From contig CAZQBY010000003.1 in the NCBI GenBank assembly GCA_964592405.1, positions 1 through 64,000 on the forward strand: 64,000 nt of DNA, given 5' to 3'. The notes under the pieces are model-generated. The model saw nothing but the letters and a program-made list of their open reading frames with translations, was not told where the DNA came from and did not search any database. This document shows positions 1-50,857 of the stretch, in pieces (the first letter of the stretch is position 1; every line of letters starts with the position of its first letter). A program made the position numbers and the translations under genes. The DNA is from an uncultured archaeon (GTDB lineage Archaea > Altiarchaeota > Altiarchaeia > JAFGQM01).

Positions 1-169
1 CACGTGCCAAGCTGCGCTGCATCCTGAAAAACACACCAGCAGGGGCGCTTTTCTCATTTTCCGGCCTATCTCGCGCATTTACCCTACCCCTAAATGATGC
101 GCGCGCAGAGGGCTCACGCCGGGTGAACTGGCCTCCCCAGGGGCCCGCACCGCGAGCTCAATTTTTGGA

Positions 170-3800: not shown

Positions 3801-4355
3801 ATGGTAAGAAGACGTATAGTTGAATCACTGGTTAAAGCCATAAAGAAAGGAAGTGTAAGGGATGTTAGGCGTGCCATTGCTCTGGCCCGTAGAGACGATC
3901 CAACATTCAAACTCACCAGTCTGAAGCACGGGCAGGCCACCCCCATGGACATTGCTATTTCTTCAGGAAGGTTGAGAATGGTCCGCCTAATGATGGATGA
4001 GGGCGGCTTCGATGTGACTACGGAGGGCAGGAGTGGTGTGCCAAAGGACAGGATTGGCGATCCAACCACTTCCCTACATCTTGCCGCCCTGAAGGGCCAT
4101 GCAAACATCGTAAAACTGCTGATAGAAAGGGGTGCCAGAGTGGATAGGAGAGGACATCTTGGCGAGACTCCGCTCATGTATGCAGCCTCACAAGGCCATC
4201 TCAAGATTGTCAGGATGCTGCTGGAGAGTGGGGCAGGTAAGGATCCAAGGGAGATAGAGGATGCAATCAGGGTTGCTAGAGAGGGCAGGAGATACAGGGT
4301 GGCCAGCGAGCTGCGCAGATATCTTGAGGCACGGGTACGTAAAACAGGGAGATGA
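3801..4355 (+). CDS. Ankyrin-repeat protein
   Basis: TPMDIA, TSLHLAALKGHANIVKLLIERGA and GETPLMYAASQGHLKIVRMLLESGA repeats. Confidence 0.9.
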   Translation: MVRRRIVESLVKAIKKGSVRDVRRAIALARRDDPTFKLTSLKHGQATPMDIAISSGRLRMVRLMMDEGGFDVTTEGRSGVPKDRIGDPTTSLHLAALKGHANIVKLLIERGARVDRRGHLGETPLMYAASQGHLKIVRMLLESGAGKDPREIEDAIRVAREGRRYRVASELRRYLEARVRKTGR

Positions 4356-4415
4356 CCAGACCTGATTGTCCCAGACTATTTCCATACTTCTTGTTCAGCT
4401 CCCCAGACTGGTGGT

Positions 4416-4667
4416 TCAGAACCTATCATGACCAAACTGGAAGATTAAATCCACTCCCAGCTTCTCCGCTTCCAGCTCCTTCGTGTCGCATGCCCCGTAG
4501 CAGGGGTCGGCGAAGATGACCGTGGTGCAGCCCGTTTTGGCCTCTATCTCACGTGCAACTGAAACCGCTTGCGTCTTCAGCCCCTCTGGAAACTGAAGAC
4601 CGACAAGCTTTGCCTTGGACTTCCTGATTTCCCTGACTATTCTGTCAACCTCAAAGTTGTAGTTCAC
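4416..4667 (-). CDS. dph2: Stand-alone N-terminal domain of diphthamide synthesis protein Dph2 (83 aa)
   Basis: GLQFPEGLK, ADPCYGACD and VDLIFQFGH motifs, then a stop; no continuation recognised in other frames. Confidence 0.75.
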   Translation of the reverse strand: MNYNFEVDRIVREIRKSKAKLVGLQFPEGLKTQAVSVAREIEAKTGCTTVIFADPCYGACDTKELEAEKLGVDLIFQFGHDRF

Positions 4668-5572
4668 TTCAATAGCCCCCTCTCCCTGAAGACCTTAACC
4701 ACCTCGCGGATTCCACTCTCCAAATCCACCTTTGGCTCAAATCCTATGTCACGAATCTTGTCTATGGATATCCTGCGGTTTTTTGTCAGTTTGTCGATAT
4801 ATTCAATAATGGAATCGCCCTTTCCGGTCAGCCTGCCGAAGAATCTGGCAAGAGCAGGACTGACGTGCCTCCCCGGAGGCTCAACGCCAAGGACTCTGGA
4901 TGCAATTTCCATAAACTCCTTCTGGGTCTTGCCGTATGCACCATCCACATTAAAAATCTGGTTTATGGCCCCGGGATTTCGTCTCACCAAGATTAGGGCA
5001 TCCAGCAGGTCCCTGATATGAATCAGGGGTATATAATTGTCTCCATTACCAAGTATCCTCATTTCTCCGTTCTGCAGGCGCTGAAGTACAGATGCAAAAC
5101 CCCTTTCAAAGTCCGGACCATAGACCTGACTTGAACGGAGAACTGTGTATGGCACGCCACTCCTTTTGATGATCTGCTCACAGACAAGCTTTGACCAGCC
5201 ATAGTTGGTGTAGGGATCCGGGGGTGTCTGCTCGGTAATCACCCCGGGGGAGCTGTTGTAGACCGATGTAGTGCTCATAAAGATAAACTGCCGGCAGTCT
5301 TTGCACAGTCTGAGCAGTTGCACGGTTGGCTCGACATTTCGTTCCAGCAGCTCCTCTCTTGAGGCCCTGTAGTCTATGCTGGCTGCAAGATGGTAGACGA
5401 TATCCGTCCTGCCGAGTCGCGTTACCTCAGCCAGTGGGGCAACTATATACTTTACACCATCCAGGTTGCCGTGGCGCGTATCTATAACCGTGACCTGATC
5501 GCCTCCCCTAAGAAGCCGCCTGACCAGATGGCTGCCTATCCTGCCGCATCCGCCTGTTATGAGAACCTTCAT
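4664..5572 (-). CDS. NAD-dependent epimerase/dehydratase (extended SDR)
   Basis: VLITGGCGRIG, YHLAA and YGWSK catalytic motif. Confidence 0.9.
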   Translation of the reverse strand: MKVLITGGCGRIGSHLVRRLLRGGDQVTVIDTRHGNLDGVKYIVAPLAEVTRLGRTDIVYHLAASIDYRASREELLERNVEPTVQLLRLCKDCRQFIFMSTTSVYNSSPGVITEQTPPDPYTNYGWSKLVCEQIIKRSGVPYTVLRSSQVYGPDFERGFASVLQRLQNGEMRILGNGDNYIPLIHIRDLLDALILVRRNPGAINQIFNVDGAYGKTQKEFMEIASRVLGVEPPGRHVSPALARFFGRLTGKGDSIIEYIDKLTKNRRISIDKIRDIGFEPKVDLESGIREVVKVFRERGLLK

Positions 5573-6228
5573 CAGTACCACCCATATATCTTCTTCTGCT
5601 TCTTTTGCGACCCCCACTTCTTCACTTTCAGGCCCTTCAGGATTATGTCGGGGTTGTTCCTGTCCTCAGTGCGCTTGAGGATCTTCTGTGGATTTGTCGA
5701 AACAGCAGCCCTTGCCTCTTCAGTGGTCATGCCGAGAAGAATCCCAAATGCCATCAGGTCCCTTGGTACGCGCAGGCCGTATTTGTCCCTAGATCCGGAG
5801 GTTATCACCATATCACATCCACAGTCACGGCATATACGGACGTTCTGCGCCATACGGCTGAGTATCTGCGCGCGCTTCCTTCCATGTGAGCCAAGAATGT
5901 TTGAGAAATTCAGCTCCACGGCTATGCCCCTTTCAGCACATGCAAGCGCTATGACCCTGTCTATGCCCGAATTGGCCTGATGCATGAAGTCCCTGCCATT
6001 ATGTATCTCCGGCGAACCGATAATATCTACTTCCCAGCACTCGGAAGCCATGCGGTTCAGCGCTTCATCTCCCATAGCGATTATAACATCGGCTTTCGCC
6101 CTAATCCTGCGTACCTCCTGTTGTATATTTTTTGAGCATATTACAATGGGCTTTATAACCTTTGACCAGCCCAGCTTTTCATAAGTTTTCTTCTCCGGAA
6201 ATCCGTTCAGATCGTAGAAATCAGGCAT
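5572..6228 (-). CDS. rnp3: Ribonuclease P protein subunit Rpp30
   Basis: LNRMASEC..VDII, SGIDRVIA..CAERGIAVELNF, VITSGS...LRVPRDL. Confidence 0.85.
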   Translation of the reverse strand: MPDFYDLNGFPEKKTYEKLGWSKVIKPIVICSKNIQQEVRRIRAKADVIIAMGDEALNRMASECWEVDIIGSPEIHNGRDFMHQANSGIDRVIALACAERGIAVELNFSNILGSHGRKRAQILSRMAQNVRICRDCGCDMVITSGSRDKYGLRVPRDLMAFGILLGMTTEEARAAVSTNPQKILKRTEDRNNPDIILKGLKVKKWGSQKKQKKIYGWY

Positions 6229-7003
6229 GGCTGGCTATGAGTGTCCCGACCTCCTGCCCCTCCAAAGCCTTTTTTATCTCGCCGGGTCTCGTTGCATTGA
6301 CTATGCGTATATCATGTGTGAAGGGGAGCATCTCCAGCATGGTCTCAACCTTGTGGAGCATGCCTCCGGTGACGTCCGTATTGCCGGAGCCCTTCACATG
6401 ATGGGCTATTTTGTTGAAGGTATCTGGTGTTATCATGGGTATGGGATTTCCTGTATTGTCCAAGACACCGTCCACATCCGTCCCTATTACCACCCTGCTC
6501 ACATCCAGCTTCTGAGCCAGATAAAGGAAGAGTTTTTCTGTGGACGCTATGCTGCAGCCACGCTCCAAGTCCACAAGGACATCCCCATGAATGACTGGAA
6601 CGGTTCCCAGTTTCAGAAGCTCTTTAAGCATGGATATGTTGAAATCCACTATGTTGTTGTTGATGGCATATGCGGCACTTGACGGCTTGACTGCTATTGC
6701 TGGCACGCCCTCCCTGACGAGGGCTGTAACAAGTATGTGGTTTAGCTCCGCGGCTGCCCTGTGGGTTTCAACCAGATGCTCCAGCTGCCATGCATCCCTT
6801 ATGCCCCTGTGAAGCTCACCTCTTTTTGCCGGCTGGTGCGGGAATGACCCCCCACCATTTCCTATGATTAACTTCAGGCCCTGTATATCTGCCAGTGACT
6901 CCCCTATTTCCTTAGCCAGTCTTCCTATCTCGCTATGGCGCGCAGTATAGGGTTTGGACTTGTCTGTCAGCACTGAGCCCCCAAGCTTTAGAAGTGTTAT
7001 CAT
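6221..7003 (-). CDS. ipk: Isopentenyl phosphate kinase
   Basis: LKLGGSVLTDK, GGGSFPH, PVIHGDV, DVTGGM..K; ATGA overlap with ubiX. Confidence 0.9.
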   Translation of the reverse strand: MITLLKLGGSVLTDKSKPYTARHSEIGRLAKEIGESLADIQGLKLIIGNGGGSFPHQPAKRGELHRGIRDAWQLEHLVETHRAAAELNHILVTALVREGVPAIAVKPSSAAYAINNNIVDFNISMLKELLKLGTVPVIHGDVLVDLERGCSIASTEKLFLYLAQKLDVSRVVIGTDVDGVLDNTGNPIPMITPDTFNKIAHHVKGSGNTDVTGGMLHKVETMLEMLPFTHDIRIVNATRPGEIKKALEGQEVGTLIASHA

Positions 7004-7551
7004 TCTTCCCCCCATCTTTTGTAGAGACTGTTCTCTATGCCCAAAGAGTCCAAAACCTTACCCACGACGAAGTCCACCATGTCGGTTACACTCTCTGGTT
7101 TTGGATAGAAGGCAAGCACCGGTGGTATTATTACACAGCCGGCCTCCCTGCATGCAACCATGTTCCTTAGGTGTATGAGGTCCAGTGGCGCCTCTCTTGG
7201 CACGAGGACGAGCTTCTTGTCCTGCTTGAGCATGACTTCCGCCGCGCGCACTATGAGGTTGTGGGCAATGCCGTTGGCTATTCCCCCAAGTGTTCTCATT
7301 GAACATGGTATGATTACCATGCCATCCATTTTAAATGAGCCACTGGATATTGCAGCCGAGAAATCCTTTTCGTCATAGGACCGGCTGGCCAGCCTGCCCA
7401 AGTCCAGCCCCCCAAGTTCATGTTTTGCTATTTCCCGGGCAGCACCGGAGACAATCAGGTGTCTGTCTATATTCTTTTCCTTAAGTATTTGCAGCAGTCT
7501 CCTGGCCAAGACTATGCCGGAAGCACCAGAAACCCCCACAATGATTTTCAT
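7000..7551 (-). CDS. ubiX: UbiX flavin prenyltransferase
   Basis: IVGVSGASG, ISSGSF, PCSMRTL, LVLVPREAPL, AFYPKP. Confidence 0.95.
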   Translation of the reverse strand: MKIIVGVSGASGIVLARRLLQILKEKNIDRHLIVSGAAREIAKHELGGLDLGRLASRSYDEKDFSAAISSGSFKMDGMVIIPCSMRTLGGIANGIAHNLIVRAAEVMLKQDKKLVLVPREAPLDLIHLRNMVACREAGCVIIPPVLAFYPKPESVTDMVDFVVGKVLDSLGIENSLYKRWGEE

Positions 7552-7589
7552 GCCATTAGTATTTCTGTTAAGAAACATAAAAGAAGCAA

Positions 7590-8339
7590 CTAGCCGGACA
7601 ATCCGCCCGCAAGTATCTTTACTCCAAGCATGAAAAGAACGCCGGTAGTAAAGAAGCCAAACGCCAACATTGCTCTCGACAGGCGGGGCTCTTTGTGAAG
7701 TTCGGGTATAAGGTCGGAAGCGGCAATATAAATAAATCCACCCGCTGCAAATGGCAGGAGGAGTATCCTCAGTTCATCATAAAGCCAGAAATATCCGGCA
7801 AGACCACCAATAACAGCAGTCAGCTGAGAAAGGAAATTGTAGAGGAGGGCTTTCCCTTTTTTCATCCCACCGTGGAGCAGAACAGCAAAGTCGCCTATCT
7901 CCTGCGGCAGCTCGTGGCCCAGTATCAGGAGGGAGGTAACCAGACCCAGTCCTATGTTAGTTATGAAGGCTGCAGAAATGACCAGACCGTCGATGAAGTT
8001 GTGTATGCCATCTCCGATGAGGACCAGATAGCTATAGGTGTGCACATCGCAGGCCCCTCCGGTATGACAGTGATGCCAGTGTAACAGGCGTTCTATGAGG
8101 AAGAATACCGAGAACCCGACAATAAAAACGACCATGGCTATATCTGCCTCCAGCGTCTCCAGCGACTCAACCAGGAGGTGCAACAGACCGCCGCCTATCA
8201 TAACACCTGCAGAGAATGCAACCAAGACAAAGAGCAGGTTCTTGAGTGTTTTGCCCTTGAAGACAAGGGTAAACGCCCCGGCAAAAGCCGCCAATCCGTC
8301 CAGGAGTGTAACCAGCAGTATCCAAAGGAGTGTATCCAT
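7590..8339 (-). CDS. ZIP-family divalent metal transporter
   Basis: DGIHNFIDG, HELPQEIGDF, FIYIAASDLIPELH and a His-rich loop. Confidence 0.95.
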   Translation of the reverse strand: MDTLLWILLVTLLDGLAAFAGAFTLVFKGKTLKNLLFVLVAFSAGVMIGGGLLHLLVESLETLEADIAMVVFIVGFSVFFLIERLLHWHHCHTGGACDVHTYSYLVLIGDGIHNFIDGLVISAAFITNIGLGLVTSLLILGHELPQEIGDFAVLLHGGMKKGKALLYNFLSQLTAVIGGLAGYFWLYDELRILLLPFAAGGFIYIAASDLIPELHKEPRLSRAMLAFGFFTTGVLFMLGVKILAGGLSG

Positions 8340-8368
8340 AGCGTAACTTATAGAGCGGTTTAAATAAG

Positions 8369-8752
8369 TCAGAGTATCCTCACCACATCTCCATCTATCT
8401 CAATCATGTCTCCGGTCTTGATTTTGGAGATGTCTATCCTGTTGACCATGGGTATCTCAGAGATTATGGCCCCCACTGCAACAATGGTCTCACAGTCGCT
8501 GTTTATCATGCCGGCAGGGGCGACGCCGTTCTTCTTGGCGCGGTAGATGCCATAGGAGCCGACTGTGGAGCCCTTTCCGCTGGGGAAGACGAGGATTTTG
8601 CCTGCAAAGCTCTTGCCCTCGAGCTCGTGGCCCTTTTCCGTGACCACCCCTTTCTCAGGGTCCACTCCGCCGTAGAAGGATATCTGGTCCTTTGTGACCA
8701 GTGCTTCCCCCTTCACCCTTCCGCTGAAAACTGCTTTTCCTTTCAGCTCCAT
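8369..8752 (-). CDS. Aconitase X small (swivel, DUF126) subunit / phosphomevalonate dehydratase small subunit
   Basis: GEALVT...ISFYGGVDP..G, GKILVFPSGKGSTVGSY; start reassigned to ATG 8752. Confidence 0.9.
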   Translation of the reverse strand: MELKGKAVFSGRVKGEALVTKDQISFYGGVDPEKGVVTEKGHELEGKSFAGKILVFPSGKGSTVGSYGIYRAKKNGVAPAGMINSDCETIVAVGAIISEIPMVNRIDISKIKTGDMIEIDGDVVRIL

Positions 8753-9942
8753 TTTCCTTTCAGAGCCGCATCGACGCACTTCTCGATGGACCCTATGTGA
8801 GTCTTCATCTGGTTGTGCCCCTGTGAATAATAGCAGCCCTTGGCTGAGGTGGTCGCCACGGACCTGAACCTGCCCTTGACGGGAGCGACAACCATGCAGG
8901 TATCGGCAGCAACCTTGGCGCCCGCCTCCTCTATTATCCTCACATAGCCCAACTCCTCTGCCTTCTCTTTTATGGGGCGCGCGCAGGCGACCCACATCTC
9001 CACGCCATCAGCGATCTTCTTGCCCTTGAGGAGCATGGCTACCTGCTTTATCTCATCCAGTGATGCATGGGGGCAGCCGAGGGATACAAAGTCTATGCTT
9101 CTCTCCTCATCATTCAGGAACTCATATGCTTCATTCATCTCTGGCTCGCCTATGGTGACGGCCTCAGCCGGATCCTCAAATCTGTCTGCTTCAGGAGTAA
9201 CGCCCTTGATGTAGTAAAGCGGTTTTGCGCCATAGGTAACAACAGATGCCGAAAAGGTCTTGAGATAGTCATTGGGCGGCTTGCCCGGGCCCTCTATGAG
9301 AGGTATCTTGTTTTTCCCTCTTTTGCCTATGGCACAGCCCAGTACTCCCCAGTCCGCCAGGGTATTGAGCTCTGCCTCCACTCTGACAAGGAGATCAGGA
9401 ACCCGATTTTCATCCAGATGGAGACCATAGTTGGGGGTCTTACCGATGAATGCGGCTGCCAAGGCAGACGGCCCGCCCTCGCGATTGGTGCGCGCGCCTA
9501 TGACGCTGTTGCAGTATGTTACAGCTGAGGATTCCGCCCATGCCACGTGCTCGCCAAAATTCGGCATAATGCCAATAAGATATGGGGTGCATGTGCAGGT
9601 GGTGTTTATGCCCATGGCCGCGAAGGCGTCCACTACAAGCTTCTGCTTCTCGGCGAAGTCCTCCGATATCCCGAGCTTCTTCCAGTCCACCATGTCCATC
9701 CCGGCAGGGTTTAGGAAAGTCGGAACCCTGACGCGCCCGTCCTCGGCCAGCCTGGAGAGATAATCCAGGCCAGCATCGCCCAGATTGTGGTAGGACACCC
9801 CAGCCACCTGGACCGATTTGATTGGAATCAGCTTATCGGCGCCGAAGATGTCCCCCAGGGCCGCGAGTATCTGCATGGACTTCTGGGCCGCATAGCCCTC
9901 TTCGCCGTCCAGGATGCGCTCCTCCTGTTTGGTGAGGTGCAT
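8743..9942 (-). CDS. Aconitase X large (DUF521) subunit / phosphomevalonate dehydratase large subunit
   Basis: TCTCTPY, AWAESSAV..NSVIGARTNREGGPSAL, LGCPHAS, DTCMVV. Confidence 0.93.
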   Translation of the reverse strand: MHLTKQEERILDGEEGYAAQKSMQILAALGDIFGADKLIPIKSVQVAGVSYHNLGDAGLDYLSRLAEDGRVRVPTFLNPAGMDMVDWKKLGISEDFAEKQKLVVDAFAAMGINTTCTCTPYLIGIMPNFGEHVAWAESSAVTYCNSVIGARTNREGGPSALAAAFIGKTPNYGLHLDENRVPDLLVRVEAELNTLADWGVLGCAIGKRGKNKIPLIEGPGKPPNDYLKTFSASVVTYGAKPLYYIKGVTPEADRFEDPAEAVTIGEPEMNEAYEFLNDEERSIDFVSLGCPHASLDEIKQVAMLLKGKKIADGVEMWVACARPIKEKAEELGYVRIIEEAGAKVAADTCMVVAPVKGRFRSVATTSAKGCYYSQGHNQMKTHIGSIEKCVDAALKGKWS

Positions 9943-10007
9943 AGTAGTGGTCTAATATTAACGGAGGGAAAATAAATATGGGAACCACAGAATGGGAAAA
10001 AGCATGG

Positions 10008-10243
10008 CCTCTCTCGCGCGAGAGTGAGTCAGATAGTCAGGAAATTCTAAAGAGAATCAGAGAAGGGCCCTACTCCGAGCGGCTTGCCTCTTTTCTGCGG
10101 GGAGATAAATGAGGTAAAGCCGCCTCCTCCCCGACCTGAACACGAAGTGCCCAAAAGGCACTTGTGCGCAGCTCCACATTCTGTGGAGCTTGCGAGTCGG
10201 GTTACTGAGGCAAAAACGTAATGAGAAGGCTTGGGGAGAGAGG
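10008..10243. other. Highly structured non-coding segment (nested hairpins)
   Basis: CCTCTCTC/GAGAGAGG ends; GCGGCTT/AAGCCGC; CCCGAC/GTCGGG enclosing AAGTGCC/GGCACTT and AGCTCCACA/TGTGGAGCT. Confidence 0.55.
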
Positions 10244-10270
10244 TTCAATCCTGCAGCTCCGCCGCCCTCA
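10244..10270. repeat. 27-bp direct repeat, copy 1 (encodes the AbiEi-like C-terminus RAAELQD*)
   Basis: TTCAATCCTGCAGCTCCGCCGCCCTCA, identical to 11672-11698. Confidence 0.95.
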
Positions 10271-10841
10271 GGACGCTCGCGCGCGTCTTGGCCGGATAGG
10301 CCTTCAGATAAGAGCGCAGTTTTTTCGTGTCCAGCCGCTTTCGCAGGTTGCGGAGGGCCTCGTCAGTGAGATGCTCCCCAAAATACACCATGTCTATGAG
10401 CGTCTTTTCAACGTCGGAATATGGGAGGTGCAAATCACCACGATTATAATAATCGAAGCCGAACATGTACCTTCTGTCCAGGCGCCTGATTAGCACATTC
10501 TGCCCCATTATCTGCCTCGCGCCCTGCCTGACCCTCCTTGCGGTCAGTATGACCGGGGCGGTCTCCTGCTCCCACAGCTCGTGGAAGCTCAGGGCGTCCT
10601 GCAGGCCTAGGTAGGCCGGCTTGAAGCAGAAGACAGCCAGGGAGGGGTCGTCGCGCGCGGTGTAGCAGCCCTTCGCAAGCCTCTTTATCCTGCCGCTTTT
10701 CAGCAGGTTGTGTACCAGCTGCTTTTCGTACTGGCTTGCGTCCGTCCTGCTTCGTATGACGCGCGCTATCGACCGGGCGTCGACTACCGGACTCTTCTCG
10801 AACAGGCGCATTACTTCCCCCAGATGTTTCACTTGGCCCAT
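10245..10841 (-). CDS. AbiEi-like type IV antitoxin / transcriptional regulator
   Basis: N-terminal HTH (LLKSGRIKRLAKGCY), PAYLGLQDALSFHEL, YSDVEKTLIDMVY. Confidence 0.8.
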   Translation of the reverse strand: MGQVKHLGEVMRLFEKSPVVDARSIARVIRSRTDASQYEKQLVHNLLKSGRIKRLAKGCYTARDDPSLAVFCFKPAYLGLQDALSFHELWEQETAPVILTARRVRQGARQIMGQNVLIRRLDRRYMFGFDYYNRGDLHLPYSDVEKTLIDMVYFGEHLTDEALRNLRKRLDTKKLRSYLKAYPAKTRASVLRAAELQD

Positions 10842-11473
10842 CTTCTTATATATTCAAGCATCTTTTCAACATCCGGCACAAGCCCCTCTATTATCAAAAC
10901 CCTCAGCTCCTTCTCGTCCACGGGGTTCTTGAACTGCCCCAGCAGCCGCTCCAGCGGTTCCGAGACCTCCCCTGGCTCTTTGACCTGCTTCAGCAGGAAG
11001 AAGATGTCGTATAAGTCCCTAATCTTGCGCCTTTTGAGATATGCGCTCACCTTCTCTCCTATCAGCTGCTCTGGGGTGAGGGTGTAGACCGGGAGATAGT
11101 TCCCGTCTGCGGTCTCGTAGTGGCCCAGCACGCCGCCGACACTTTTGAACAGCGCCTCGAACCTTACGATTGCGCCGCCGCTCCCAATGCGCGAATAGAG
11201 GCTGCTGTCGCCCATCTTCTTTTTCTTCAAGACGAGGCCGCTTTTCTTCAGACCTTGAAAGAATTTCTCCAACGCCTTCTTGTCTTTTGGCATGTAGACG
11301 TCTATGTCCTCGGAGAAGCGGTTGCCTCCGTAGCATCTCCAAATCGCCGTGCCTCCATGGATTACCGCATCCCTGGAGGCCCTGTACAGCTCCCCGACTA
11401 TCAAATCCTGCGCTGCCGCTATGTCCCTGTGCCTCTTCCTTCTCAGCCTCAGGGCCAGCGGTATGCGGCTCAT
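10829..11473 (-). CDS. AbiEii/AbiGii-family nucleotidyltransferase toxin
   Basis: HGGTAIWRCYGGNRFSEDID and EKVSAY..RRKIRDLYDI motifs. Confidence 0.92.
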   Translation of the reverse strand: MSRIPLALRLRRKRHRDIAAAQDLIVGELYRASRDAVIHGGTAIWRCYGGNRFSEDIDVYMPKDKKALEKFFQGLKKSGLVLKKKKMGDSSLYSRIGSGGAIVRFEALFKSVGGVLGHYETADGNYLPVYTLTPEQLIGEKVSAYLKRRKIRDLYDIFFLLKQVKEPGEVSEPLERLLGQFKNPVDEKELRVLIIEGLVPDVEKMLEYIRRWAK

Positions 11474-11480
11474 TTTGGAT

Positions 11481-11516
11481 TAAACTAAAGTTATACATAT
11501 ATATAACCTTGGTTTA
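11481..11516. promoter_or_regulatory. 15-6-15 imperfect inverted repeat upstream of the AbiE operon (probable autorepression operator)
   Basis: TAAACTAAAGTTATA-CATATA-TATAACCTTGGTTTA, 2 mismatches; AbiEi proteins are known to bind promoter inverted repeats. Confidence 0.6.
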
Positions 11517-11671
11517 TTTAAAGTGTGAACCTATAAAAAGCTTTTGCTGGTCCCGGCAGGGCTGCTCTTCGCCCGAAACGGCTTAGGCTGGCACGCCACA
11601 TGCATCGCTTGACATAGTCACCGAAGTTCTTGGGACTTCTAAGGGTCCGTCCCCCTTCCTTTTTGGCGAAT

Positions 11672-11698
11672 TTCAATCCTGCAGCTCCGCCGCCCTCA
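11672..11698. repeat. 27-bp direct repeat, copy 2 (encodes the UbiD C-terminus RAAELQD*)
   Basis: Identical to 10244-10270. Confidence 0.95.
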
Positions 11699-12956
11699 AA
11701 AACTCCTCCTTCTTGCCGCCCCACGGGATGGTGGCATCCAGGCCCCACTTTGTGGTCAGCCTGCGGTCCGAGTTTGGATCCTCCTCAGCTGACGGGTCCA
11801 GGGATGAACCCTTCTGCTTTTCCAGAAGAATTAGATCCCGGTGTGCCTGGAATCGCGTAGCAAGCGCCCATTCAACGTCATTTGGGTCGAAGATGTCTAT
11901 GTCCTCGTCCACAACCACAACACGCTTCATGGACTTGTGGCCGCTGAACGCGGCTTCGATGGCTTTCTTCCCGTCCTCCGGTCCCTTTTTCCTGATTTGG
12001 ATAACCGAGTGCAGCCAGGAGCACCCTCCCGGAGTCAGGTTAACATTCCTGCAGTCCACGACCCCGCTGACTGCCCTGTAAATCGTCGGCTCCTTTGGCA
12101 TCCCCATGAGCAGGCGGTGCTCCGTCTTGCCCGGAACGAGAGCCTGGTATATGGGATTTTCACGGTGGGTTATGCGCTTGATTGTCACCACCGGCTGGTC
12201 GCGGATGGTGTCATAGGTTCCCGTCATGTCCACGAATTTGCCCTCCTTGGCCGTCTCCTCGAAGCTTATGGTTCCCTCCAGGACAATCTCGCAGTCCGCC
12301 GGGACGTTGATGTCCACGGTCTTGCACTTGACAAGCCTCATGGGCTTTCCCTCCAGCGCGCCGGCAATCTTCACCTCATCCACGCCCTTCAGGGAGGTGG
12401 CACCGGCGATGAGCATGGACGGGACGTTGCCCAAACAGATGGCCACCTCGCTGGTGCCGCCCTTCGCCTCCATGCACCTGTACGTGTCGCGCTCGCATAT
12501 GCGAGCAACCAGCTTGTTTTTCCCTATCCTCTTCGCGCGGTGGTAGGCGACGTTCTGGCGGCCGTCCGGGGTCTTGACGAAGAACAGGCCCGCGGTTATG
12601 TAATGGCCGTCATCCTTTGGGTAATGCTTGAGGATGGGCATCTCCCCCAAGTCCACGTCCTTCTCGACGACCTCCTGGCAGGCGCCCTGCTTGACTATCT
12701 CGGGTTCAATGGGGCTGTCCAGAGCCTTGGCGATGCGGAACAGGAGCTCCTCTTTTTTTGTCTTCATGTAGCGCGCGACCAGCTCGCGGGTCATGCACAC
12801 ACCCGAGGCAAGCCTGTATTTCCCCAGACCCTCAAAGAGTATTGGCTTTTGGGATCTGAATATTATGTCCGCAATTTGTACATCGGGGTCTGCCGGACCG
12901 TGCTTCAGCAGATCTCCTGAGTTCTCCAGTTCCTCCAAAAAGCCCCGCAGATCCAC
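11673..12956 (-). CDS. ubiD: UbiD-family prFMN-dependent decarboxylase (probable anhydromevalonate phosphate decarboxylase)
   Basis: DLRGFLEEL start (GTG 12956), EIVLEG...EGKFVDMTGTYD, VVVVDEDIDIFD...VEWALATRFQ, GSSLDPS. Confidence 0.92.
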   Translation of the reverse strand: MDLRGFLEELENSGDLLKHGPADPDVQIADIIFRSQKPILFEGLGKYRLASGVCMTRELVARYMKTKKEELLFRIAKALDSPIEPEIVKQGACQEVVEKDVDLGEMPILKHYPKDDGHYITAGLFFVKTPDGRQNVAYHRAKRIGKNKLVARICERDTYRCMEAKGGTSEVAICLGNVPSMLIAGATSLKGVDEVKIAGALEGKPMRLVKCKTVDINVPADCEIVLEGTISFEETAKEGKFVDMTGTYDTIRDQPVVTIKRITHRENPIYQALVPGKTEHRLLMGMPKEPTIYRAVSGVVDCRNVNLTPGGCSWLHSVIQIRKKGPEDGKKAIEAAFSGHKSMKRVVVVDEDIDIFDPNDVEWALATRFQAHRDLILLEKQKGSSLDPSAEEDPNSDRRLTTKWGLDATIPWGGKKEEFLRAAELQD

Positions 12957-12989
12957 GTTTATTTTAAGGAAGGGACTAAATAAAAACAT

Positions 12990-50690: not shown

Positions 50691-50857
50691 GCGGCCGTGG
50701 TGTAGTCTGGTATCACTCAAGCCTTCCACGACCTTTTCTCGGAGAAAAGGTCGATCAAAAGAGGCCTTCGCCTCGTGAAGGCGCTTTCGGTCGACCGTGG
50801 ACTAGAGACTGGGAGCGGAGTGAGCTTGGAACCCGGGTTCGAATCCCGGCGGCCGCA
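50691..50857 (+). tRNA. tRNA-Gly(TCC) with a 94-nt intron at 37/38 (50729-50822)
   Basis: GCGGCCG/CGGCCGC acceptor stem, CAAGC/GCTTG anticodon stem, T-arm, CTTC/GGAG BHB helix. Confidence 0.93.

Follow-up and report, generated by a model that had tools for sequence, protein, structure and literature searches.

Insertion with long target duplication of gene complexes that encode restriction-modification (RM) systems was reportedly described by Nobusato et al. in 2000. As set out by Furuta, Abe & Kobayashi (2010, PMC2853133), this mode is seen with type I-IV RM gene complexes across several phyla of Bacteria, and it leaves long duplications of variable length. The repeats have no further copy in the genome, frequently extend over the start or stop site of a gene and occasionally create a gene fusion. 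The insertions treated in that account have a repeat of >30 bp, an insert of <20 kb and no other mobile-element gene; its authors suggest that a common property of RM systems, for example double-strand breakage, underlies insertion, and they propose a virus-like cycle of insertion, amplification via the repeats and release (PMC2853133). The text of Mruk & Kobayashi (2014, PMC3874152), in the part that bears on the question, assigns the mode to RM systems only, and the mostly open-access literature that we searched holds no report of it for toxin-antitoxin (TA) modules or for archaeal TA systems. Here, we describe a TA cassette of the AbiE type that carries the marks of such an insertion. It lies in a 64,000-nucleotide stretch of DNA from an uncultured archaeon of the Altiarchaeota (contig CAZQBY010000003.1, positions 1 to 64,000; hereafter the window), where it sits between the genes ubiD and acnX and is flanked by two copies of a perfect 27-bp direct repeat.

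Elements that lack an integrase of their own can be mobilised in trans, as are cis-mobilizable elements (CIMEs), Xer-dependent integrative mobile elements (IMEX) and pdif modules; pdif modules typically carry TA modules, and TA pairs are likewise common as cargo of integron cassettes. The toxin of AbiE systems, AbiEii, is described as a GTP-binding nucleotidyltransferase (NTase) within the DNA-polymerase-beta family with four motifs, of which I and II read hG[G/S]x(~15)DhD and include an arginine, III reads KLxAaxxR and IV reads +DxxD (Dy et al. 2014, PMC3985639). Relatives of AbiEii are described as modifying tRNA acceptor stems. To our knowledge, the AbiE pair has no known DNA-cleaving activity.

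We conclude with high confidence that the window's cassette is an inserted mobile unit with a duplicated gene end, and with moderate confidence, from comparisons of sequence, that it would have entered by a route anchored in homology and free of any recombinase. Taken whole, the picture that we consider probable, though well short of certain, is that of a toxin-first AbiEii/AbiEi cassette of ~1.3-1.4 kb, inserted by this homology-anchored, recombinase-free route, whose orphan ubiD end is a copy. The original prediction, made from the letters of the window alone, had read the cassette as an integrase-free mobile addiction or defence unit that targets ubiD and is mobilised in trans; the integrase-free mobile unit stands in outline, while neither the targeting of ubiD nor the mobilisation in trans is supported. 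The findings below extend insertion with long target duplication from bacterial RM systems to an archaeal AbiE family, in which the junction falls precisely at a stop codon.

The cassette splits a conserved gene junction

Nine relatives of the window genome have ubiD and acnX 12-68 bp apart: the congener G002 (42 bp), G004, G006 and G007 of the same family, and G025, G021, G028, G035 and G017 of the same class. The gap in the window measures 1730 bp. Since the two genes adjoin without the cassette in all nine, we read the cassette as an insertion that splits a conserved ubiD-acnX junction, and these relatives supply the empty allele that the original prediction had proposed to look for. The 1401-bp insert holds the two TA genes, their promoter and the remnant of an open reading frame (ORF) that we call orfX, and it carries no other mobile-element gene, in keeping with the earlier remark that no recombinase is encoded there. 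Among the 41 genomes searched, cassette DNA was matched in four, the window's own included; G006 and G032 carry homologous TA pairs elsewhere in the genome at 66-67% nucleotide identity, and the match in G001, the second congener, extends over only ~90 bp.

The two copies of the 27-mer are identical, as claimed (0 mismatches), and are spaced 1428 bp apart (Table 1). They are the only two in the window's own 1.13-Mb genome; allowing as many as 3 mismatches brings up no third match, and a pair of matches arose in none of 100 dinucleotide-preserving shuffles. Since UbiD of both congeners ends FLRAAQLQD at the same place, and since other family members end similarly, the repeat is the native end of ubiD. 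UbiD and the antitoxin of the window both end in RAAELQD because each reads through a copy of the repeat in the same frame, which explains an identity that had been noticed from the translations. The closest antitoxin homologs, those of G006 and G032 (62% identity, 197 aa), end ...AIVGTA and ...DALKTA, so the RAAELQD tail is foreign to the window antitoxin and not the native end of its family; the protein has lost its last ~6 codons and stop and has taken on the ubiD tail.

Misassembly of the repeat was considered and is ruled out. Three hydrothermal-vent metagenome runs (X1-X3) contain 71-79% of the stretch's sampled words, and their Logan contigs, built with a word size (k=31) that exceeds the 27-bp repeat, bridge the distal copy in all three runs (record 4 of X1, record 10 of X2, record 18 of X3) and the proximal copy in two (record 5 of X1, record 13 of X2); in addition, the JGI metagenome contig L116, with 99.77% identity over 2599 nt, spans ubiD, the repeat and the toxin gene. 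An old, vertically inherited and non-mobile TA pair, its 27-bp identity being the product of gene conversion, of a local duplication or of faulty assembly, would suit the GC content of the cassette, which equals that of its flanks (0.55 vs 0.56), and the fixation of the cassette across the three runs in strains that differ at ~0.3-0.5% of sites. We nevertheless hold this explanation to be very improbable, and largely refuted, given the empty sites in a congener and throughout the family, the confirmation of both junctions by independent assemblies and the presence of the same architecture in unrelated genomes, far above controls.

A toxin-first AbiE pair

The toxin carries all four motifs (HGG-x14-DID with R52; K141..A144 Y145..R148; R152 DLYD) and so falls within the definition of AbiEii NTases (DUF1814, COG2253), and PADLOC assigns the antitoxin to AbiEi (COG5340), whose members combine an N-terminal winged helix-turn-helix (wHTH) with a C-terminal neutralising domain. 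Against Pfam AbiEi_4 the antitoxin reaches only an E value of 0.0026, short of the cut-off, and we found no PDB relative by sequence and no NCBIfam match for it. The toxin gene comes first and overlaps the antitoxin gene by 13 nt. That the toxin precedes the antitoxin had been pointed out for the window, and this is also the arrangement of every one of the 81 homologous loci in which both genes are present.

In much of this the pair resembles AbiE of Streptococcus agalactiae and Lactococcus as described in PMC3985639: both combine a DUF1814 NTase toxin bearing motifs I-IV with an AbiEi-type regulator-antitoxin, and both are bicistronic, with overlapping genes and an inverted repeat at the promoter. 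Canonical AbiE, a type IV TA and abortive-infection system that regulates itself via promoter inverted repeats, places the antitoxin first, unlike the archaeal cassettes, and the two proteins of the window are short. The sole non-coding block conserved among the cassettes is a TATA-like box with an inverted repeat, a putative promoter/operator.

Direct repeats recur across the cassette family

To place the window's repeat in context, we scanned for relatives of the toxin with one genome per species and took the best 80 loci of 435 relatives, which come mostly from DPANN archaea, Hadarchaeia, Altiarchaeota and metagenome-assembled genomes labelled Methanosarcinales. For the 68 loci whose flanks both measure at least 300 nt, the 500 nt upstream of the toxin were compared with the interval from -60 to +500 around the antitoxin end, and a local direct-repeat score of at least 17 was taken as significant. 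Thirteen of the 68 toxin-first loci reach this score, against 2 of 1500 cross-locus flank pairs, none of 68 loci with the right flank reversed, none of 68 with it reverse-complemented and none of 51 shifted mock cassettes on the same contigs, where the top score was 13.

The repeats all differ in sequence, length and host gene; they are perfect over 17-70 nt, some being longer and imperfect, and their spacing is mostly 1.32-1.49 kb. Perfect repeats flank the cassettes of the window, L101, L035, L093 and G006, the last of which has a 26-bp direct repeat of unrelated sequence, spaced 1480 bp, in a promoter region between divergent genes. In L082 and L050, diverged extensions flank a perfect core. 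Similarity confined to the cassette across different contexts (L045/L063, 87% over 1329 nt; L100/L107, 81% over 1277 nt) puts one edge of the unit ~61-74 nt ahead of the toxin start and the other 22-46 nt beyond the antitoxin. The cassettes end raggedly: both the window and L101 have a truncated antitoxin, left arms measure 72-223 nt, and no common left-end motif was found among the cassettes with long arms. An inverted flank match scoring at least 17, as expected of terminal inverted repeats, occurs in none of the 68 loci.

Most repeats are host-gene ends that stop at the stop codon

One copy of the repeat, at 8 of the 14 repeat-positive loci, has its cassette-side edge no more than 2 nt from the outer edge of a stop codon that closes an ORF of 100 aa or more, a coincidence with a chance of ~0.006 per boundary, for which ~0.2 cases would be expected. 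The repeat in these eight loci is the last 24-70 nt of the host gene, and all eight ORFs have a Pfam match. Two host genes lie upstream of the cassette and are co-directional with it (UbiD in the window, an ArsR-type regulator at L101); the other six are convergent and lie downstream, encoding class II aminoacyl-tRNA synthetases (aaRS) at L035 and L099, ribosomal protein S10 at L093, GyrA at L058, archease at L050 and a DAC-domain protein at L041. Homologous cassettes thus adjoin the 3' ends of other host genes, many of them with housekeeping roles, a point that the original prediction had listed as worth checking.

In the orientation of the host gene, identity between the copies runs 1-2 nt beyond the stop in five cases and ends after the T of the stop in three. 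In all three of the latter, the copies are completed to different stop codons (TAA vs TGA at L101, TGA vs TAG at L050, TAA vs TGA at L041), and in none of the eight loci does the host ORF have a C-terminal extension. An edge at the stop codon, the absence of any extension and the differing stops would be expected if identity ended where donor and recipient cease to be homologous, at the close of the coding sequence. L101 parallels the window further, in that its antitoxin takes its final codons and stop from the orphan copy; behind that copy comes sequence similar to what natively lies downstream of the G081 ortholog.

Two loci can be paired with their empty sites. The window is matched by G002, with one copy of the repeat and the 42-bp spacer, and L035, the clean case, by G096, where the left flank, a single repeat copy and the aaRS gene are contiguous without the 1331-bp insert. 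The 34-bp repeat of L035 is the exact 3'-end overlap of two convergent genes. The two sides of L035 are unequally similar to G096, the flank at 2553-2928 being 88.9% identical and the aaRS gene side at 4224-5643 only 75.9%; this inequality suggests that the surroundings of the insertion are of mosaic ancestry.

Sequence inside and beyond the window's repeats

Inside the window's repeats, next to the ubiD end, lies a stretch that we call segment [A]. The orfX of G001 (L026 1142-1603), an orphan ORF of 153 aa and basic character, begins 2 nt past the ubiD stop, and segment [A] retains approximately its first 34 codons, without the start codon. orfX belongs to no Pfam family and turns up in just 2 of the 61 class genomes, with no homolog beyond the genus among those 61. 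On the other side, a 248-bp segment, of which the window's own genome holds no other full copy, separates the orphan repeat from the native acnX upstream region, and it is either the lineage's native spacer or a separate insertion. The window's cassette is not cleanly bounded by its repeats, with segment [A] inside them and 248 bp beyond, and neither feature agrees with a simple duplication.

Within the 248-bp segment lies a 101-nt element with a very stable three-way-junction fold. A second, truncated copy stands at the start of contig C1, and in runs X1-X3 the element occurs in other sequence contexts and at raised depth; its first ~31-35 nt are found twice in G007 and also in G002. It has no Rfam match and may represent either a gene for a small RNA or a mobile element of miniature size. 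As a candidate for an integron attC site, the element does fold strongly, but into a three-way junction, and only ~2 copies are known.

Routes of insertion

We propose that the cassette passes from one lineage to a related one in the form of a DNA fragment or circle, which would still bear the end of its adjacent gene. Host homologous recombination would then make one join inside that gene end, leaving the gene intact and the cassette abutting a functional stop, while the other join, illegitimate or formed by the circle junction, would fall tens of nucleotides upstream in the same gene and so generate the orphan copy. Segment [A] would be the sequence downstream of ubiD in a G001-like donor, brought in with the cassette. 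Recombination between the two copies would, as follows from their sequence, excise a 1428-bp circle and restore ubiD. A homology-anchored route of this kind would account for the variable length of the repeats and the ragged far end, and also for the diverged extensions at L082 and L050, for a cassette GC content equal to that of the host and for segment [A]; the ortholog-like sequence behind the orphan copy of L101 speaks for it too.

The cassette might instead be a site-specific integrative element reduced to its cargo, comparable to a CIME or a satellite, with the repeats as attachment sites (attL and attR) and with an integrase, encoded on a virus, on a plasmid or in an unassembled region, that inserts and excises it in trans. 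Integrases classically betray themselves by a direct repeat through which the target gene regains its 3' end, for which Salmonella genomic island 1 at the 3' end of trmE is a described case, and archaeal elements with att repeats of 15-55 bp are described in PMC4158269. Integrase-targeted islands and their integrase-less derivatives further resemble the cassette in that the element itself can lack a recombinase; they differ from it in that the cassettes show no common core, no dif-like dyad, no recombinase match and a variable repeat length. Other inserts at the ubiD-acnX junction, in G001, G036, G022 and G030, make a hot spot possible. The one in G036 (L011 2845-3745), a genome from another family of the class, is a different module, comprising a 113-aa Fic/DOC-family ORF, a 78-aa ORF of no family and a cupin, and the ubiD end is not repeated beside it; the gap in G022 measures 917 bp and contains a 271-aa ORF on the opposite strand, and the 342-bp gap of G030 is built of ~107-bp tandem repeats.

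The search for an enzyme speaks against such an element. The window's own genome (22 contigs, 87% complete) yielded no match to PF00589 tyrosine recombinases, to PF00239 serine recombinases, to Cas1 or to a PD-(D/E)XK/InsA protein; the first three were found in 14, 12 and 7 of 14 control genomes, respectively. Not even a chromosome resolvase of the XerA type was detected there with PF00589. No two repeat-positive cassettes, moreover, have their host gene or their repeat, of 17 to 70 or more bp, in common, so that there is no shared att core for a site-specific recombinase; both the specific targeting of ubiD and the recombinase acting in trans, as originally envisaged, lack support on this ground. 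A tRNA-like or otherwise fixed att target is ruled out, the region having no tRNA or Rfam match and the repeats differing among loci. The ends of the cassettes are ragged and share no conserved motif besides the promoter, and a scan of viral contigs brought up hardly any member of the cassette family, giving just 2 weak matches. The incompleteness of the genome leaves some room for an integrase in trans, and we regard this origin as unlikely.

A true target-site duplication, in which staggered breaks tens of nucleotides apart are filled in around a linear cassette by a nuclease or transposase acting in trans or by repair, is to our minds about equally improbable. It would fit the perfect repeats of the five loci named above and the single repeat copy at the empty site of L035, and it has a precedent in RM systems that insert without other mobility genes (PMC2853133). 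A staggered cut blind to position does not, however, predict an edge at the stop codon in 8 of 14 loci or the absence of a C-terminal extension in 8 of 8; nor does it sit easily with repeat lengths from 17 to >70 nt, with copies completed to different stop codons in three of three cases, or with the lack of terminal inverted repeats. DNA transposons and miniature inverted-repeat transposable elements differ from the cassettes on this last count and in that the duplications here are long and variable. AbiEii, finally, belongs to a family of tRNA- or nucleotide-directed NTases with no known role in DNA breakage.

Features shared with the RM insertions are a small addiction-type unit without a mobility gene, long repeats of variable length that are unique in the genome and often cover a stop or start site, a single-copy target at the empty site and a gene fusion at the junction. 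The repeat of the window, at 27 bp, lies slightly below the RM cut-off, and the family spans it. Unlike the RM complexes, the cargo here is a type IV TA pair, for which the DNA-breaking property of RM systems is unavailable; the hosts are archaea, and the repeat edge falls at a stop codon in the majority of repeat-positive loci. The same signature around an NTase/regulator pair without known DNA cleavage argues for a host-borne or general route of insertion.

Several observations weigh against the homology-anchored route or narrow the evidence for it. No significant repeat is found in 55 of the 68 loci; among the repeat-positive loci, the repeat of L082 is a multi-copy element and that of L049 is of low complexity, the exact matches at L090 (at a contig end) and L064 (in an RGG-like repeat) are doubtful, and L105, one of the 13 repeat-positive loci, comes from an unpublished genome, G045. 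Only the window and L035 offer filled/empty pairs. No syntenic empty site was found for G006, L101, L093, L058 or L099: in G003, which was compared for the insertion of G006, the upstream region is not syntenic, and relatives of the other four have the host gene in common and not the other flank. Contigs of X1-X3 contain no joint of an empty site or a circle, and, because rare variants are dropped from contigs, they are silent on excision at low frequency. At the window itself, the orphan copy is followed by the 248 bp that are absent from G002 and then by a G002-like spacer; by identity of UbiD and AcnX, G002 is closer than G001 to the window genome, so that segment [A] requires either a donor lineage or loss in G002. 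A recombinase may also have gone unassembled, and the route leaves the first arrival of the cassette beside a new gene unexplained. A metagenome scan with the window's toxin, made in search of a donor, returned the same population only.

Arrays of the L082 type

L082 and its relatives carry an element of ~100-128 bp every 0.9-1.8 kb, with up to 4 copies per contig, and between its copies stand units of two genes each: AbiE, an NTase of 227 aa together with a 219-aa ORF, and a pair of 105 and 92 aa. The element is the 3' end of a gene that encodes an InsA zinc ribbon and a PD-(D/E)XK nuclease, and in genomes of the Woesearchaeota type (L082 1303-4572; L130; L128) the arrays are headed by that gene, whose product could be involved in building them. 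Such arrays recall integrons in their small promoter-proximal units and their recurring element. An integron attC site is ruled out for the element, however, as it has no hairpin fold (z 0.2-0.8), and the window's own genome has no IntI-type recombinase match; we read the arrays as one target used repeatedly and not as a series of attC sites.

Implications

How TA modules travel between and within chromosomes when no plasmid, phage or transposon carries them has long been an open question. For one widespread archaeal TA family, the signature described here, a cassette that abuts the stop codon of a host gene and has a copy of that gene's end on its other side, is reproducible and statistically supported. 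As a tentative generalisation, one that we consider possible and would not yet wager on, recombinase-free movement may be proper to addiction modules in both prokaryotic domains: such modules, like RM units in Bacteria, would carry a copied gene end as a handle, settle at the stop codons of essential genes by way of the host's recombination machinery and use the resulting repeats for circle formation and amplification. If this were true, settling at the stops of essential genes would make imprecise deletion lethal, and AbiE cassettes would stand as a class of their own among autonomous selfish elements. The same idea could also explain why AbiE is enriched in DPANN genomes, as stated in PMC12988326, given that these tiny genomes lack most mobile-element machinery. 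At the window itself, the insertion parts two archaeal mevalonate-pathway genes that are normally adjacent and creates a chimeric antitoxin C-terminus.

Features of the window

The positions of the features discussed are collected in Table 1. Past the antitoxin gene, a 300-bp gap is followed by genes for the large and small subunits of AcnX, a ZIP metal transporter, the flavoprotein UbiX and an amino-acid kinase that resembles isopentenyl phosphate kinase, all on the minus strand. Positions 6221-12971 form a compact archaeal mevalonate-pathway cluster on that strand, interrupted only by the ZIP transporter and the TA cassette. This cluster and a tRNA with an intron identify the source of the DNA as archaeal. 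Judging by G002, the true start of ubiD is likely the GTG near 12938.

Table 1. Positions and supporting evidence of features at the cassette locus (window coordinates).
Feature	Position	Strand	Evidence or remark
AcnX large subunit gene, usual immediate downstream neighbour of ubiD	8743..9942	-	Pfam AcnX 4.4e-153
Native acnX upstream region	9943..9995	-	Alignable by eye with the 42-bp ubiD-acnX spacer of G002
248-bp segment between orphan repeat and native acnX upstream region	9996..10243	.	Absent from G002
101-nt multi-copy structured element within the 248-bp segment	10105..10205	.	Fold z -5.9 (+), -4.6 (-)
Distal (orphan) repeat copy	10244..10270	.	Gives the final 7 residues and stop of the antitoxin
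AbiEi-type antitoxin, 198 aa	10245..10841	-	PADLOC AbiEi 2.4e-17, residues 18-183; tail replaced by ubiD tail
AbiEii (DUF1814) nucleotidyltransferase toxin, 214 aa	10829..11473	-	Pfam PF08843 5.5e-16; PADLOC AbiEii 1.9e-18; motifs I-IV intact
Putative cassette promoter/operator: TATA-like box and inverted repeat GTTATA...TATAAC	11487..11523	-	Conserved in homologous cassettes
Segment [A], remnant of the first 34 codons of orfX	11563..11664	-	81% nucleotide identity; 65% amino-acid identity, E 2.3e-7
Proximal repeat copy	11672..11698	.	Native last 27 nt of ubiD: minus-strand stop TGA 11673-11675 and 1 nt
UbiD-family decarboxylase gene	11673..12971	-	Pfam UbiD_N, UbiD, UbiD_C; 89% identity to G002

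Two minor observations concern the rest of the window. The final ~45 nt of contig C21 are the first bases of contig C3 (window 1-45), and the two contigs probably adjoin or have a repeat in common. At 50691-50857, a tRNA match that Rfam detects and ARAGORN misses spans 167 nt, so this tRNA probably contains an intron.

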